Part shown: piece by piece, positions 35,988-40,984 of the stretch
How positions within the stretch are numbered: position 1 is the stretch's first letter
How the letters are laid out: every line of letters begins with the position of its first letter
DNA from: Clostridia bacterium
GTDB lineage: Bacteria > Bacillota > Clostridia > Christensenellales > UBA1242
Direction: 5' to 3'
Length of the DNA: 43,958 bases
Assembly (NCBI GenBank): GCA_046882085.1
Contig: JBKSNA010000033.1
Coordinates: 1-43,958, forward strand
Program-made: the position numbers and the translations under genes
The notes under the pieces: model-generated
Told to the model about the DNA's origin: nothing
Databases searched by the model: none
What the model saw: the letters and a program-made list of their open reading frames with translations, nothing else

Positions 35988-37121
35988 ATGGTGGCGAAGA
36001 AACCTTCTGTAAGTGCTAGAACTTTTGAATGTAATATGAGAAATTTTAGATTACATATTCAGCCACATATTGGAAATATGAAAGTTTATGAGGTGGACAC
36101 GTTTGTAATTCAAAAGTTGGTTAACAAATTAGCTGAAGAAGGTTTGAGTGTTGATGTGATTAAGAAAAAGAAACATCTAATTAATCAATTCTTTGAGTAT
36201 GCAAAAGATAATAAATGGGTGGTAGACAATCCAACAACAAAATTGAAGATAAGATCAAAAGATAGAACGAACACAGAAGCAAAAGAAAGATACAAAGCAT
36301 TGAATCCTGAAGAAAGAGCAATATTTTTGGAAGCATTAAATAAAGACGAAGCAAACTTTATTAAACCACTTTGCATTTTGCTTATGTTTGCAGGTTTAAG
36401 AATTGGAGAGGCTTGTGCTTTGAAATGGAAAGATGTAAATTTCGAAAATAAAACATTAAAGGTTGAAAGAGGAATAACTCAGGTTGCAAAGTTTGATGAG
36501 AAAGGAAAGGTGGTTGAAAGAGTAACTGTTGTGGGAGCCACAAAAACAGCGTGTTCTGTGCGAGAAATACCAATCACAGACATTGTGGTGGAAACCTTAA
36601 AAACATGGCGTAAAAAGCAGGATTTCAAGCAAAAAATGGACCCTAGCATCAAAGTTAATCTTATAGATTCAGATGCTTTCATTTTTGCGAACGATGATGG
36701 TAGTGTTAGGACATATTCAGGGTGTAGAAAGATTTTCGGTAGATTTATTAATCGTAACAGGTTGCAAAAATACAACATTCACTTTCATGGATTAAGGCAC
36801 ACCTTTTCAAATATGCTTTTTGAAATGAACGAGAATCCAAAAGTTATTCAACAACTGCTAGGGCATCGTGATGTGAAAACGACAATCACAGTGTACAATT
36901 CTGTTGATAGTGAGTATGTAAGACAAGCAACTGACAAATTGAATGATAAAATTAAAAATGAGGAAATATTTGCTCAGAATAAACAGATGGAAGATGAAAA
37001 GCAAGAACAAAAGAAAAGTGTTATTTCAGAAATGAGCGATGAAGAGTTTGATGATATGTTTTTAGATTTATTGGAAGAACGCAAACGAAGAAAACAAAAA
37101 CAAGATGATATGGAGATGTGA
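35988..37121 (+). CDS. tyrosine site-specific recombinase / integrase with a short N-terminus and acidic C-terminal tail
   Basis: Catalytic residues in GLRIGEACALKWKDV (R), HGLRHTF (HxxR) and LGHRDVKTTITVY (H, Y). The core-binding domain starts near residue 10, so an arm-binding domain seems absent. Confidence 0.85.
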   Translation: MVAKKPSVSARTFECNMRNFRLHIQPHIGNMKVYEVDTFVIQKLVNKLAEEGLSVDVIKKKKHLINQFFEYAKDNKWVVDNPTTKLKIRSKDRTNTEAKERYKALNPEERAIFLEALNKDEANFIKPLCILLMFAGLRIGEACALKWKDVNFENKTLKVERGITQVAKFDEKGKVVERVTVVGATKTACSVREIPITDIVVETLKTWRKKQDFKQKMDPSIKVNLIDSDAFIFANDDGSVRTYSGCRKIFGRFINRNRLQKYNIHFHGLRHTFSNMLFEMNENPKVIQQLLGHRDVKTTITVYNSVDSEYVRQATDKLNDKIKNEEIFAQNKQMEDEKQEQKKSVISEMSDEEFDDMFLDLLEERKRRKQKQDDMEM

Positions 37122-37240
37122 AAATATTAAATATTGTCATATTTAAGACGATTTTTAAAATCCTTGTGTTAATATGCAAACAAAAAAGGTTGGAGAGTAA
37201 TTTCTTCAACCTTGCAATTTTTAAGGAGGTATGATATAAT

Positions 37241-37825
37241 ATGGGTGTACTTAACGATGTTATTCAAATTGATAAAGATGGAAATGTAAAATATAATCAA
37301 TGGATAGAATGGGATCACTTTCTAATTCCTAATAATATAGAGTGGTTAAGAGAGATTTTAAGAAATTTAATGGCTGTTTTTGGTCATTGCAAAAAATGTA
37401 CTGCTTTGGATGGTTGTTATTTGGTTAAAGGTAATATGCCTGAACAACCACTTCATGAACATTGCGATTGTAAAAGCAAAAATATCGCATTTTCGAAGGT
37501 AAAGTCAAAAGCATTTGCGGAATGTGATATTAGAAAGTTTACAGAATATGTTTTTACAAATATAGAAGATTCAAAAGGCAAAATTGAGATTTTTAAAGAA
37601 ATGGGTTACTCAAAGGAAGATTCTTCATATTTACAACAAGAATTTTGTAAACAGGCTCTTGAACAATATTTGTTAGGAAATTATAAGTTAAAAACTTTAG
37701 ATGCAAAAGGTCAAAGACTTGCTATTCCAACTACACTAAAAGAAATTACTTTTTATAGTGGTTGGATGTTGTGTCCAGAAGGTAAAATTAGAAATACAAC
37801 ACCGTTTGGAGGAAGAATTAAATGA
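37241..37825 (+). CDS. MuF-type zinc-ribbon fused to a DUF6883-like C-terminal domain
   Basis: CKKC-x17-PLHEHCDC resembles the MuF/SPP1-gp7 C-terminal ...PPLHPNCRC motif. The C-terminal half (IRKFTEYVF..SKGK.EIFKEMGYS...GQRLAIP...SGWM..GKIRNTTPF) resembles DUF6883. RBS AAGGAGG. Confidence 0.6.
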   Translation: MGVLNDVIQIDKDGNVKYNQWIEWDHFLIPNNIEWLREILRNLMAVFGHCKKCTALDGCYLVKGNMPEQPLHEHCDCKSKNIAFSKVKSKAFAECDIRKFTEYVFTNIEDSKGKIEIFKEMGYSKEDSSYLQQEFCKQALEQYLLGNYKLKTLDAKGQRLAIPTTLKEITFYSGWMLCPEGKIRNTTPFGGRIK

Positions 37826-38307
37826 AAAAATACGATTTAGTTAAATTAATTAATGAATCACCATATTTAAAATACAACTTAACAAAAAATGCTCATGGTA
37901 TTATTATAAATTCATATATAGACACAATGGATGTAATGTTTTTCAATCCTCAAAATTATGGAGATTACATTATTGTTAAAATAAAAGCGCAAGATTTGAT
38001 TTTAGAGAAAGAAAAATTACCTAATAAGGTGATTAAAGAATTTGAGCAAAAGAAAGAAAAAATCATTTCAAAAGCTAAAGAAATCTTACAAACTTTGCCT
38101 GTAAAAGCTTATAATATAGTAGAATTAATTGTGGAAGATGAAAAATATACTAAGTTTGGAATACATAAAGGTGATCGAGGCTGTGTGATGGATGACATTG
38201 CTGTTGATAATTGTGTTGAAGTTGATTTTTCAGGAATTGATGAAGATAGAAATTATTATGGGGATTGTATTTCTGTAAATATTAAAGATTTAAAAGTGAT
38301 TAAATAA
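37822..38307 (+). CDS. protein with two tandem DUF4926-like modules
   Basis: YDLVKLINESPYLKY...VMFFNP...IKAQDLIL and YNIVELIVEDEKYTKFGIHKGDRGCVM...VEVDF...NIKDLKVI. ATGA overlap with the upstream stop. Confidence 0.55.
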   Translation: MKKYDLVKLINESPYLKYNLTKNAHGIIINSYIDTMDVMFFNPQNYGDYIIVKIKAQDLILEKEKLPNKVIKEFEQKKEKIISKAKEILQTLPVKAYNIVELIVEDEKYTKFGIHKGDRGCVMDDIAVDNCVEVDFSGIDEDRNYYGDCISVNIKDLKVIK

Positions 38308-38310
38308 AAC

Positions 38311-38547
38311 ATGAAATATTTAGATTTGGTAGAATTGATAAAAGAAAAACCAGCATATAAAAAAGCTGGGGTTAAAGTTGGCGACTTCGGGGCTGTCATG
38401 AGCAAACAACCAATTAATGGAAAATGGCAAGTTGTATTTTCTGAATTTTATACAGGAAAGGACACCGCTGATATTATGGTTGCCGAAGAAGATTTACAAG
38501 TGCATGAATTTGTTCCTAAAGACAAATATCCAAAGAAAAAACAATAA
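38311..38547 (+). CDS. single DUF4926-like module protein
   Basis: LDLVELIKEKPAYKKAGVKVGDFGAVM...WQVVFSEF...VAEEDLQV. Starts 3 nt after the upstream stop. Confidence 0.55.
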   Translation: MKYLDLVELIKEKPAYKKAGVKVGDFGAVMSKQPINGKWQVVFSEFYTGKDTADIMVAEEDLQVHEFVPKDKYPKKKQ

Positions 38548-38552
38548 AAAGG

Positions 38553-38705
38553 CTGACAGTAATTGACAGTAGTTTGACAGCAGTTGACACCATTTAGGGT
38601 GTTTTTAGGTAGTTTTAAAGAGATTTAGACCGAAAGTTGAGTTGATCAATTTTCGGTCTTTTTTCATTAAATTTTTTGACAGCAGTTGCACCTAAATTTG
38701 ACAGT
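38553..38705 (+). repeat. cluster of TTGACAG-type direct repeats
   Basis: cTGACAGTAA TTGACAGTAG TTTGACAGCAG TTGACACC at 38553-38591, then TTGACAGCAGTTGCACC at 38676-38692 and TTGACAGT at 38698-38705. Confidence 0.7.
38627..38665 (+). terminator. rho-independent terminator of the 37241-38547 operon
   Basis: AGACCGAAA/TTTCGGTCT stem plus T6. Confidence 0.7.
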
Positions 38706-38740
38706 AAATGTTTTTTTTGTGGAAAAGATGTGGGAAATTT

Positions 38741-38791
38741 TAAAAACAAAAAACCCTTGAAAACATCTATAAAATAGGCGATTTTCAAGGG
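38741..38791 (-). terminator. terminator downstream of the tRNA-Thr fragment (likely the original tRNA terminator)
   Basis: CCCTTGAAAA/TTTTCAAGGG stem with an 18-nt loop, followed by a T-run on the minus strand. Confidence 0.6.
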
Positions 38792-38800
38792 TTGAGATTT

Positions 38801-38846
38801 TGGAGCTGATGACGGGGATCGAACCCGTGGCATCTGCCTTACCAAG
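38801..38846 (-). pseudogene. 3' fragment (about 46 nt: anticodon loop to CCA) of a tRNA-Thr(GGU)-like gene; att-type scar
   Basis: Reverse complement cTTGGTAAGGCAGATGCCACGGGTTCGATCCCCGTCATCAGCTCCA has an anticodon loop, T-arm ACGGG/TTCGATC/CCCGT, acceptor 3' strand and CCA. There is no matching 5' acceptor strand (GCTGATG) upstream. Confidence 0.65.
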
Positions 38847-38882
38847 TATTGAATTTTACCCAAGCAAGACTCGAACTCAAAG

Positions 38883-38914
38883 CACAGGAAACCATTATCT
38901 TTCCTGTGTTTTTT
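38883..38914 (+). terminator. orphan plus-strand hairpin terminator just inside the island edge
   Basis: CACAGGAAA/TTTCCTGTG stem plus T6. No plus-strand gene lies upstream of it. Confidence 0.5.
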
Positions 38915-38931
38915 CTTGCTTACAAAACTTC

Positions 38932-38975
38932 CAATTGTTGTCAATTTTTAAAAATTTGACAACAGTTGACAACAA
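38932..38975. repeat. TTGACAAC boxes in palindromic and tandem arrangement
   Basis: TTGTTGTCAATTTTTAAAAATTTGACAACAGTTGACAACAA. A further inverted copy GTGTTGTCAA lies at about 39053-39062. Confidence 0.65.
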
Positions 38976-39115
38976 AAGCCCCATTTTAACCCACCAAAAC
39001 ACCTAATTTTTCCACCTAAAATCATCTAAACTTGCCTAAAACCGAACATCAAGTGTTGTCAAAAATTTTAGGGAACAAATTAGAGCTTAATATTTCAAAA
39101 AGTTCCCTAAAAGAA

Positions 39116-39141: not shown

Positions 39142-39381
39142 TTAATATACATCTTCAGTTCCGTTAAAATAATCTCTTGCAAAAAATTCTTCAAGAGTTA
39201 TATTTGCTCCTGAACAAATTTTCTTAATTGTGATTACTTTTGGGCATTTGCTTTTGCCAGACATAAAATCAAAAATAGTTGATGGTGTTAAATTAGAATT
39301 TAAACATAATGCAGTCAATGTTATTTTGTTTGTTTCAACTATTTCGTTTATTCTTTTTCTTATTGCTTCATCAATATTCAT
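39142..39381 (-). CDS. XRE-family helix-turn-helix transcriptional regulator
   Basis: 79 aa. ITLTALCLNSNLTPSTIFDFMSGKS is a typical HTH_3 pattern. Divergent from the SLOG-like gene. Confidence 0.75.
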   Translation of the reverse strand: MNIDEAIRKRINEIVETNKITLTALCLNSNLTPSTIFDFMSGKSKCPKVITIKKICSGANITLEEFFARDYFNGTEDVY

Positions 39382-39512: not shown

Positions 39513-40070
39513 ATGAAAAATGAAGTTTGTTCTTTCTTTGGTCATAGAAAAATTGAGATAACCGGGGAACTTAAACAAAAAGTAAAAGAAGTAATTAAAG
39601 ATTTGATTGTTAACCACAATGTTTTTACTTTCTTGTTTGGTAGTCGTAGTGATTTTGACTACCTTTGTCATTTAGTGGTTACAGAACTAAAAGAGAAATA
39701 TCCAAGCATTATAAGAAAATGCTACACTTGCAGAAGTGAAACCTGTACATTAGAAAACGAACGAGAACATTGGGAAGAGCTATATAGTCATTTCAGAAAA
39801 GAAAAAGTTACACTACTTGGTGTTGAAGAAGAAGTGGAACACAAAACAAAATACACATCTGGCAAAGCAAGTTATGTAGAACGAAATCAAGCTATGATAA
39901 ACGATAGCGATTATTGTGTCTTTTATTATGATGAAAACTATCAACCTGAAATGCGAAAATACTCCAAACGAAGCATTGGCTATTACCAACCCAAATCCGG
40001 CACAGCCCTTGCCCATGTCTACGCCAAACAAAAGAAAAAGATAATTATTAATTGTTATATAAAAATTTAA
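39513..40070 (+). CDS. SLOG-fold (YpsA/DUF1273/YoqJ-like) protein
   Basis: N-terminal CSFFGHR motif, then FLFGSRSDFDYLC, with later acidic/Gly positions typical of this nucleotide-binding Rossmannoid family. Confidence 0.55.
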   Translation: MKNEVCSFFGHRKIEITGELKQKVKEVIKDLIVNHNVFTFLFGSRSDFDYLCHLVVTELKEKYPSIIRKCYTCRSETCTLENEREHWEELYSHFRKEKVTLLGVEEEVEHKTKYTSGKASYVERNQAMINDSDYCVFYYDENYQPEMRKYSKRSIGYYQPKSGTALAHVYAKQKKKIIINCYIKI

Positions 40071-40135
40071 AAAACTTTTTTAAATATAGCGAAATTTTTT
40101 ATAAAATATGTTATACTCGTTATAGAGGAAAAATT

Positions 40136-40984
40136 ATGGAACAAAAGAATTACGGAAAAACAATTGAATTATTCTTTGTAAATGGAACTTCAGATGGTAT
40201 TGTTACAGCTGAGTTAAGTAATTGGAGTGGAAGATCAGTCAAAATTCCACGCATTAATGTTAAAGATTATGACCGTGGCGGAATTTGTAATGTTGGTGTA
40301 TATCTTTTATATTGTGTAGAAGATGATGGATCTGAAAAAATTTACGTGGGTGAAGCTGAAAATGTTTCAGACAGATTAAAACAACATATCAGAGACTATC
40401 AATCAGGTAAAGAATCTTTTTATTGGAATCAGGCAGTTGTTTTTACAGATGATAGATTAGATAAAGCTGAAATTAGATATATTGAAAATAAATTGGCCGA
40501 TATTATTAGTAGTAATGATAAATCCAAACTTTTAACCAAAAGCACATATAAAAATACTGCATTAAAAGATTCTCAAATAGCGAAAGCAGAAGAATTTATA
40601 GACAATATAAAAACTTTATTGGGTGCACTTGGTTTAAAAACTCTTAATGAAGTTCCAAAGGCAACTGCAGAAACAATATATTTTTATTGTAAAGGAACAG
40701 ATTCTTCTGCAACAGGATTCTTGTCTAACGAAGGTTTTACGGTAATGAAAGGATCTATAATTTCATCTAAAACAGCTAACTCGTTTAAAGGTGCTGCTTA
40801 TTATAAGTTAAGAGAACGACTTATAGAAGATCAAGTAATTGTAGATGGAGAATTTACAAAAGATTACGAATTTAAAGCTCCATCTGCGGCATCATCTGTA
40901 GTTCTTGGAAGAGCGTCAAATGGAAAGGATAAGTGGAAAACACAAAACGGCGTTAAGTTCGCTGATATTAAATTAGAGGTTTAA
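40136..40984 (+). CDS. GIY-YIG nuclease domain protein with DUF4357-like C-terminal domain
   Basis: GVYLLYC..EKIYVGEAENVSDRLKQH..(R)YIENKL is GIY-YIG-like. The C-terminal GFTVMKGS...FKAPSAASSVVLGRASNG..WK is DUF4357-like. Start moved to ATG 40136, which has RBS AGAGGA. Confidence 0.7.
   Translation: MEQKNYGKTIELFFVNGTSDGIVTAELSNWSGRSVKIPRINVKDYDRGGICNVGVYLLYCVEDDGSEKIYVGEAENVSDRLKQHIRDYQSGKESFYWNQAVVFTDDRLDKAEIRYIENKLADIISSNDKSKLLTKSTYKNTALKDSQIAKAEEFIDNIKTLLGALGLKTLNEVPKATAETIYFYCKGTDSSATGFLSNEGFTVMKGSIISSKTANSFKGAAYYKLRERLIEDQVIVDGEFTKDYEFKAPSAASSVVLGRASNGKDKWKTQNGVKFADIKLEV

Follow-up and report, generated by a model that had tools for sequence, protein, structure and literature searches.

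The window analyzed here is a stretch of 43,958 nucleotides (nt) from a Clostridia bacterium (GenBank assembly GCA_046882085.1, contig JBKSNA010000033.1, positions 1 to 43,958), and our subject within it is a cassette of three small open reading frames (ORFs), ORF1 to ORF3, flanked by a tyrosine recombinase gene and a fragment of a tRNA-Thr gene. The cassette is probably a free-standing toxin/immunity locus on an integrase islet, composed of an RNase toxin that joins the stub of a phage MuF protein to a DUF6883 domain (ORF1), a tandem DUF4926 immunity protein (ORF2), and an orphan immunity protein (ORF3). This reading is built on gene structure, homology, synteny, and a cassette swap seen against a close relative. 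What is new in this analysis is that ORF3, to judge from its relatives, pairs with a sister toxin and was orphaned by the swap, so that it is not a third antidote for ORF1. The three genes and two segments of ORF1 are as follows:

37241-37825, plus strand: ORF1, 194 amino acids (aa), candidate toxin, with an N-domain (aa 1-92) and a DUF6883-like C-domain (aa 93-194)
37822-38307, plus strand: ORF2, 161 aa, candidate cognate immunity protein or antitoxin, two DUF4926-like modules with a charged helical linker between them
38311-38547, plus strand: ORF3, 78 aa, a single DUF4926-like module, apparently the orphan immunity gene of a paralogous 179-aa DUF6883 toxin ("type B")
37382-37486, plus strand: zinc ribbon, ORF1 aa 48-82 (HCKKC...PLHEHCDC), matching the C-terminal end of Phage_Mu_F
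37517-37822, plus strand: DUF6883-like toxin domain, a predicted BECR-type RNase from its Pfam match, invariant residues, AlphaFold2 (AF2) model, and best PDB matches

DUF6883, DUF4926, and the link to MuF proteins

The original prediction, made from the DNA letters before any profile search, had likened the C-domain of ORF1 to DUF6883 and the modules of ORF2 and ORF3 to DUF4926. Pfam searches did not reject these assignments, with matches in 28/30, 22/30, and 16/25 homologues of ORF1, ORF2, and ORF3, respectively. Window ORF1 itself scores 20.7 bits against DUF6883 (PF21814; E 5e-4, aa 95-167; gathering cut-off, 27 bits), its best homologue reaches an E value of 1e-6, and type B toxins exceed the cut-off with 27.6 and 33.1 bits. 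In a joint alignment of ORF1-type and canonical DUF6883 proteins, a Lys, a Tyr, a second Lys, and a Gly are invariant (K99, Y103, and K114 in ORF1 numbering); T187 is invariant within the ORF1 family and T, S, or N over the wider DUF6883 alignment, and R184 is mostly R or K. Since nearly all homologues match, type B toxins pass the cut-off, and these four residues are invariant, ORF1 is evidently a divergent relative of DUF6883 that lies below the threshold for membership; the proposed resemblance is borne out at the family level, with window ORF1 alone being sub-threshold.

For DUF4926 (PF16277; gathering cut-off, 29.1 bits), window ORF2 gives no match, and its matching homologues always do so through the C-terminal module, with a best E value of 1.6e-7 (31 bits) and one protein above the cut-off. 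Window ORF3 scores 14.9 bits (E 0.017), and the matches of its homologues are weak. Comparison by hhalign pairs the C-terminal module of ORF2 with ORF3 at 96.5% (E 8e-10) and the two modules of ORF2 with each other at 72.5% (E 3e-5), which points to two DUF4926-like modules in tandem for ORF2 and a single such module for ORF3. Of the original count of two modules in ORF2 plus one in ORF3, the likeness of the C-terminal module to ORF3 is clear, and that of the N-terminal module is weak. All three families occur in gut Clostridia/Christensenellales metagenome-assembled genomes (MAGs), with 226 clusters for ORF1 (57-76% identity to the window protein), 405 for ORF2 (58-63%), and 382 for ORF3 (79-96%), the last being far more conserved than the other two. 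Homologues of ORF1 and ORF2 are always neighbors with overlapping genes, in six different genomic contexts that include serine recombinase/tRNA-Thr, thrS, recF-dnaA, and tyrosine integrase neighborhoods, so the synteny expected of a genuine pair is found elsewhere.

A search of 400 genomes of the phylum (Bacillota) with PF21814 returned 11 canonical DUF6883 matches. At least 5 of them form the C-terminal domain of 399-611+-aa proteins that carry a MuF motif (TLD.RTS.IC..MDGK...PPFHPWCR) and adjoin capsid/scaffold genes, and Pfam assigns Phage_Mu_F or Phage_min_cap2 together with DUF6883 to two of these proteins (L114 and L123); the other canonical matches are stand-alone proteins of 88-131 aa. 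In 8 of the 11 cases, an ORF of 59-82 aa overlaps or abuts the stop codon of the DUF6883 gene, and 4 of these 8 small ORFs match DUF4926, three above the cut-off with 42-73 bits. A canonical DUF6883 gene followed by a DUF4926 gene is thus found in 4/11 cases, which bears out the co-occurrence of the two families across genomes. Because DUF6883 caps full-length prophage MuF proteins and small DUF4926 genes come next, the two families, as judged from sequence and gene order, are a genuine toxin/immunity pair. One of the prophage proteins has a peculiarity of its own: in the reverse-strand MuF-DUF6883 protein of locus L115, the zinc-ribbon motif is split (…GLFHPN / CFPAGVLV … TIITHN / CRHAY…) by an insert of ~330 aa that starts with Cys and ends with His-Asn-Cys and looks like an intein inserted precisely within HPNCR in this prophage MuF toxin.

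How close is ORF1 to these MuF proteins? Its N-domain contains the motif H49-C50-x2-C53...H72-x2-C75-x-C77, of which H49, C50, C53, H72, and C77 never vary among 30 homologues and C75 hardly does. By hhalign, aa 48-82 align with columns 72-110 of a 113-column MuF profile built from the PF04233-matched segments of 15 prophage proteins of the same class (93.6%, E 2e-7, 35 columns), and column-shuffled controls (n=20) all fall below 1% probability. Phage_Mu_F (PF04233) matches neither window ORF1 nor any of the 30 homologues, and a hidden Markov model (HMM) of the N-domain finds only 118 proteins among 1.84 billion representative proteins, all of ≤239 aa and nearly all with a DUF6883-like C-domain as in ORF1. 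In a Foldseek search with ORF1 of the viral models in BFVD, MuF-type matches are weak, the best being a "minor capsid protein" (E 5.8e-3). ORF1 as a member of the MuF family was rejected, since the defining domain is absent (0/30 homologues match, and 35/113 columns align). Of the original description of a MuF-derived ribbon lacking the MuF body, the ribbon stands through its alignment to the C-terminal MuF columns, the rest of Phage_Mu_F finds no match, and the loss of the body agrees with the short proteins recovered by the N-domain HMM. ORF1 appears, then, to carry a MuF zinc ribbon without being a MuF protein.

MuF toxins are known to place a small immunity ORF behind a C-terminal toxin domain and to be exclusively phage- or prophage-encoded (Jamet et al. 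2017, PMC5576092). The cassette resembles them in its overlapping ORF1/ORF2 order, in drawing on the DUF6883 and DUF4926 families that occur on full-length prophage MuF proteins, and in the MuF C-terminal zinc ribbon kept by ORF1. It differs from them in that ORF1 lacks the ~250-400-aa MuF head-morphogenesis body and lies outside any phage packaging module, scans of IMG/VR returned no relatives for either ORF1 or ORF3, and the immunity protein is a tandem of two modules. The same N-domain also occurs with another cargo: at four loci (L015-L018, e.g., L016:3137-4231), a 192-aa protein consists of an MGIFDD...HCxxC...HxxCxC N-domain fused to barnase (PF00545), followed by barstar and then by an ORF3 homologue, suggesting that the zinc-ribbon N-domain is common to at least two RNase cargoes. 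In P0451, a protein of 172 aa, the N-domain ribbon is succeeded not by DUF6883 but by another ribbon, of the canonical MuF type (TCYYC…PVHENCRC).

The predicted RNase domain and its putative inhibitor

The chemistry of the toxin domain was approached through predicted structure and remote homology. AF2 models full-length ORF1 with a pLDDT of 87 and a pTM of 0.84, the N- and C-domains being packed as one globule, and models the C-domain alone with a pLDDT of 91.3 as four helices (H9-14, H19-22, H25-31, and H36-56) followed by a four-stranded β-meander (E60-65, E68-77, E80-88, and E93-103). The canonical BECR fold is described as one or more N-terminal helices followed by a four-stranded β-meander (bioRxiv 10.64898/2026.09.18.752725), and the predicted topology of the C-domain agrees with this description. 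An HMM of ORF1-type and canonical DUF6883 proteins ranks CdiA-CT Kp342 (6cp9_A) first in the PDB at an E value of 0.037, which is below significance, in an alignment that pairs the catalytic R252/T255 of Kp342 with R184/T187 of ORF1. Foldseek with the isolated C-domain model ranks CdiA-CT EC3006 (6vek_A) first in the PDB, likewise below significance (E 0.12, prob 0.75, TMq 0.44), and another contact-dependent inhibition (CDI) toxin third. As BECR tRNases, Kp342 and EC3006 are sisters that rely on a Lys-Tyr-Thr triad together with His/Arg; the immunity protein of Kp342 forms an all-β dimer (PMC9086364). Neither ORF1 nor the profiles A1, A2, and A3 retrieved anything meaningful when the PDB was searched by sequence. 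Since these separate weak lines of evidence converge, we lean slightly toward the toxin domain of ORF1 being a BECR-type RNase that acts on tRNA or another translation RNA. SRLase1-type "BECR-like" toxins were also considered as a match and rejected, because their catalytic set differs (Arg/Asp/His/His).

Compared with the CdiA-CT EC3006/Kp342 toxins (Gucinski et al. 2019, via PMC9086364), the likenesses are that they are the best profile and fold matches, albeit below significance, that the predicted C-domain of ORF1 shares their topology of helices and then four strands, that their Lys-Tyr-Thr(+Arg) set can be mapped onto K99/Y103/T187/R184 of ORF1, and that the β-rich tandem of ORF2 recalls the all-β dimer of CdiI-Kp342. 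Unlike them, ORF1 has no CdiA delivery region and no conserved counterpart of the catalytic His; CdiI and DUF4926 showed no link in sequence.

Put together, the favored scheme would run as follows. The ORF1-ORF2 pair would trace back to the tip of a phage polymorphic toxin of the MuF type, with the last ~35 MuF residues, the Cys/His zinc ribbon, kept inside the 92-aa N-domain of ORF1 and joined by a short linker to the DUF6883 toxin domain. This domain would most likely be a metal-independent BECR RNase of the colicin D/CdiA-CT(EC3006, Kp342) type, in which Lys99, Tyr103, and Thr187, aided by Lys114 and Arg184, would cleave tRNA or some other RNA of translation, bringing protein synthesis to a halt. 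ORF2 would be produced in step with ORF1 through their ATGA overlap and its own ribosome-binding site (RBS), and its two SH3/KOW-like DUF4926 modules would bind ORF1 directly, like a covalently linked dimer. ORF3 could still protect against type B toxins from outside, and the tRNA-Thr(GGT) islet would be a hotspot for swapping such cassettes in gut Christensenellales-like Clostridia. Toxicity, the RNase chemistry and its target, neutralization by binding, and the role of the locus are the parts of this scheme that we infer.

Several observations weigh against the scheme. None of the PDB matches on which the RNase reading draws reaches significance (E 0.037 and 0.12), the full-length ORF1 model has no PDB match with an E value below 1 by Foldseek, and the catalytic His of Kp342 and EC3006 is without an invariant counterpart, a Lys lying near that position. 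No family in NCBIfam, PHROG, or PADLOC matches ORF1, ORF2, or ORF3; Pfam finds no DNA-binding domain in ORF2 or ORF3, for either the window proteins or their homologues; and the link to MuF consists of a 35-residue Cys/His motif that could be convergent.

If all of the sub-threshold RNase evidence is set aside, ORF1 might be read as a zinc-ribbon factor binding nucleic acid or protein, a regulator or a recombinase accessory, with ORF2 and ORF3 as its SH3-like partners. The tight linkage of the cassette to recombinases in several relatives would suit such a factor, as would the packing of the N- and C-domains into one globule in the AF2 model (pTM 0.84). We regard this as very improbable, since the C-domain shares homology with the cargo domain at the C-terminus of MuF polymorphic toxins, behind which an immunity-sized gene lies, and is interchangeable with barnase/barstar in the same architecture, and since degraded toxin genes beside an intact ORF3, described below, are typical of toxin/immunity loci.

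A stronger competitor is an addiction or abortive-infection (Abi) toxin-antitoxin (TA) system, in which a labile ORF2 would restrain ORF1, loss of the islet or phage infection would free the RNase and stop growth, and ORF3 would be an anti-addiction remnant. The gene arrangement suits it, since two small genes overlap and the toxin comes first, an order known from higBA and mqsRA; the pair rides on a mobile integrase islet and occurs in many independent insertion contexts, and the sequence of ORF1 has neither a secretion signal nor a trafficking domain. Most type II antitoxins have a DNA-binding domain. Such a domain, which would serve autoregulation, is missing from ORF2 and ORF3, and PADLOC finds no known Abi or TA family, so we hold this explanation to be plausible and yet clearly the less probable one. 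The same balance appears when the cassette is set beside toxin-first type II systems (HigBA and MqsRA; RelE-superfamily BECR): two small overlapping genes on mobile DNA and a probable, model-based BECR RNase with a predicted protein inhibitor are shared, whereas the inhibitor ORF2 has no helix-turn-helix (HTH), ribbon-helix-helix (RHH), or other DNA-binding domain, and ORF1 bears an extra zinc-ribbon N-domain and has its ancestry in polymorphic toxins.

ORF3 and the replacement of its toxin

The original prediction had taken ORF3 as the last of three immunity modules serving ORF1, and this did not hold. To which toxin does ORF3 belong? We fetched 74 ORF3-anchored loci from species-representative genomes and read the upstream content in 72 of them. 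An intact ~179-aa HCxxC…HxxCxC/DUF6883 toxin, here called type B, stands directly 5' of ORF3 with a gap of ~10 nt in 25/72 loci; it shares 33-37% identity with ORF1 in the N-domain and 40-46% in the C-domain. Toxin fragments only precede ORF3 at 12 loci, ORF3 stands alone at ~30, and the N-domain-barnase fusion with barstar lies upstream of it at 2 loci, in addition to L015-L018. The ORF1-ORF2-ORF3 order of the window is repeated only in L072. ORF3 as a third immunity module for ORF1 was rejected on the ground that its regular partner is the 179-aa toxin; it belongs to a second, paralogous pair and is seemingly an orphan in the window.

The closest relative of the window locus, L019 from a Candidatus Onthoplasma MAG, illustrates how this came about. 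It shares 90% identity with window positions 36593-37292, which cover the 3' end of the integrase gene, the promoter, the RBS, and the first 17 codons (52 nt) of the toxin gene, and 91% identity with positions 38297-38552, which cover ORF3 from 14 nt upstream. Between these conserved blocks, toxin B of L019 occupies the position that the ORF1 body and ORF2 fill in the window, and the sequences are unrelated; the same integrase and promoter thus precede toxin B and ORF3. By this comparison, the window lineage has evidently replaced a type B body with ORF1 and ORF2, in the interval bounded by the conserved 5' stretch of the toxin gene on one side and ORF3 on the other, and ORF3 would be an orphan because its toxin body was replaced. 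Arrays also vary among other relatives, as L022 carries toxin B, ORF3, and then an ORF2-like orphan, and L027 differs from the window as well. At L038:3448-5228, a 196-aa toxin and a 79-aa ORF3-like gene are followed by a truncated 142-aa toxin, a 43-aa toxin fragment, and ORF3, a tandem that is an example of stacked, decaying cassettes.

The ratio of ORF3 to its toxin raises the question of what keeps ORF3 in place. About 42 of the 72 loci (~42/72) are without an intact toxin, and ORF3 has a mean identity of 80.5%, compared to 70.7% for the C-domain and 57.6% for the N-domain of its toxin. The excess of orphan ORF3 genes, as counted over these loci, favors a protective role for ORF3. Both observations also speak for a different account of the whole locus, in which the cassette, above all the orphan ORF3, is immunity acquired against external DUF6883 toxins, either injected by MuF phages or delivered by neighboring cells, and the integrase collects or exchanges cassettes at tRNA-Thr, comparable to orphan-immunity islands of gut Bacteroidales. 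The presence of MuF-DUF6883 toxins in prophages of the same phylum, the variable arrays among relatives such as L022, and a PADLOC candidate defense gene of family PDC-S14 1.5 kb away fit this account. The toxin gene of the window is intact and apparently expressed, which is superfluous for pure immunity, and scans of IMG/VR found no phage with a toxin close to type A (ORF1) or type B; we therefore consider a defense island of this kind unlikely as the full explanation and retain the toxin/immunity cassette with an orphaned ORF3 as the preferred reading.

Orphan toxin/immunity arrays have reportedly been described for CDI and Rhs systems, and recombinase-associated orphan-immunity islands are said to occur in gut Bacteroidales. 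The locus resembles such arrays in three respects: recombination at the conserved 5' portion of the toxin gene displaces a cassette, what stays behind downstream are orphan immunity genes and toxin fragments, and a recombinase adjoins. It is unlike them in being tiny (1-3 genes), in its tRNA-Thr attachment (att) site, and in residing in reduced-genome Clostridia, with the role of the recombinase in exchange being putative.

The tRNA-Thr islet and its significance

The signals and boundaries of the islet around the cassette are the following:

35988-37121, plus strand: tyrosine recombinase (integrase) at the head of the islet, Phage_integrase (92 bits) plus a SAM-like N-domain
37186-37213, plus strand: terminator-like hairpin 3' of the integrase gene, from a consensus scan
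37212-37240, plus strand: promoter-like TTGCAA-17-TATAAT, from a consensus scan
37223-37229, plus strand: RBS AAGGAGG of ORF1, 11 nt 5' of its ATG
37808-37813, plus strand: RBS GGAGGA of ORF2, read from the sequence
38627-38665, plus strand: intrinsic terminator closing the operon, a 14-bp stem (38627-38659) plus a T-run
38574, 38676, and 38956 (plus strand) and 39048 (minus strand): four copies of the 15-mer TTGACARCAGTTGMC, spanning 38574-39062 and surrounding the tRNA fragment
38801-38846, minus strand: 3' 46 nt of tRNA-Thr(GGT), an att-type scar and the edge of the conserved islet, from sequence and homology to relatives

Most of the layout first described for this operon is present in the sequence: the three plus-strand ORFs at their coordinates, the ATGA overlap of ORF1 and ORF2 (37822-37825), the 3-nt gap (AAC) between ORF2 and ORF3 (38308-38310), the recombinase upstream, and the terminator and tRNA-Thr scar downstream. 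The supposed single RBS for the whole operon is refuted by the GGAGGA of ORF2. No clear Shine-Dalgarno sequence precedes ORF3, and terminator-like sites in the region number 6 compared to 1.0 expected. ORF2 and ORF3 share a reading frame and are separated by TAA and one codon (AAC), such that hypothetical read-through of the ORF2 stop would yield one DUF4926 protein of three modules.

The tRNA fragment spans the anticodon loop to the CCA end. ARAGORN and Rfam do not call it at 38801-38846; it was recognized by visual inspection and through homologous relatives, and in 6 of these the corresponding site carries an intact tRNA-Thr(GGT). A functional copy lies on another contig of the same genome. 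Relatives share homologous DNA with the window from ORF3 across the terminator up to 38846, within the fragment, indicating that the cassette sits at a tRNA-Thr(GGT) integration site, and integrase homologues precede the toxin cassette in L019, L022, L024, L029, and L046. The four matches of TTGACARCAGTTGMC compare with 0.11 expected, and the 15-mer is found nowhere else in the genome and nowhere in 123 fetched loci of other genomes; its copies may be recombinase arm sites or operators of the neighboring HTH protein. The TTGACAG heptamer alone was tried and dropped, being not enriched, unlike the full 15-mer.

The neighbors of the cassette are the integrase, a GNAT gene, leuS, the tRNA scar, and defense-type genes, with no phage packaging or head module. 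To the right of the scar lie a divergent Cro/C1 HTH gene (39142-39381, minus strand), a YpsA/SLOG-family protein gene (39513-40070, plus strand), and, overlapped at its start by the latter, a gene for a 310-aa GIY-YIG plus DUF4357 protein (40052-40984, plus strand) that PADLOC assigns to PDC-S14 with 274 bits, and this DNA looks like a second, defense-type islet. The genome is a 791-kb MAG of 58 contigs with 34% GC, 89.8% completeness, and 27 tRNAs found; ORF1, ORF2, and ORF3 occur once each in it, and members of its family reach 0.9-1.0 Mb when complete (100%). Even with such a reduced genome, this gut Clostridium retains toxin/immunity and defense islets.

A bolder extension can be drawn for the site as a whole, in which the tRNA-Thr islet is a recombinase-serviced exchange site, ORF3 is selected as a shield against phage-injected MuF-DUF6883 RNases, and the locus is a Firmicute counterpart of the acquired interbacterial defense islands of Bacteroidales; on that view, the MuF ribbon on stand-alone toxins might be a handle for a conserved partner instead of a relic. 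We regard this extension as speculative and improbable, and the free-standing toxin with its immunity protein and an orphaned ORF3 as the reading to prefer.

That reading would bring no new principle and would make the cassette a variant of known bacterial toxin/immunity systems. If true, it would join DUF6883 and DUF4926, two Pfam domains of unknown function, as a toxin/immunity pair and give DUF6883 a testable chemistry, a BECR tRNase-like Lys-Tyr-Thr site. The window and L019 together would show cleanly how, in nature, one toxin cassette replaces another and an orphan immunity gene stays behind, and the frequency of toxin-less ORF3 suggests selection for protection against incoming toxins. 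It would also mean that the cargo tips of phage MuF toxins can be cut loose, retaining the MuF zinc ribbon alone, and spread as free-standing cassettes in gut Christensenellales-like bacteria, whose genomes of ~0.9 Mb are those in which few accessory genes survive.

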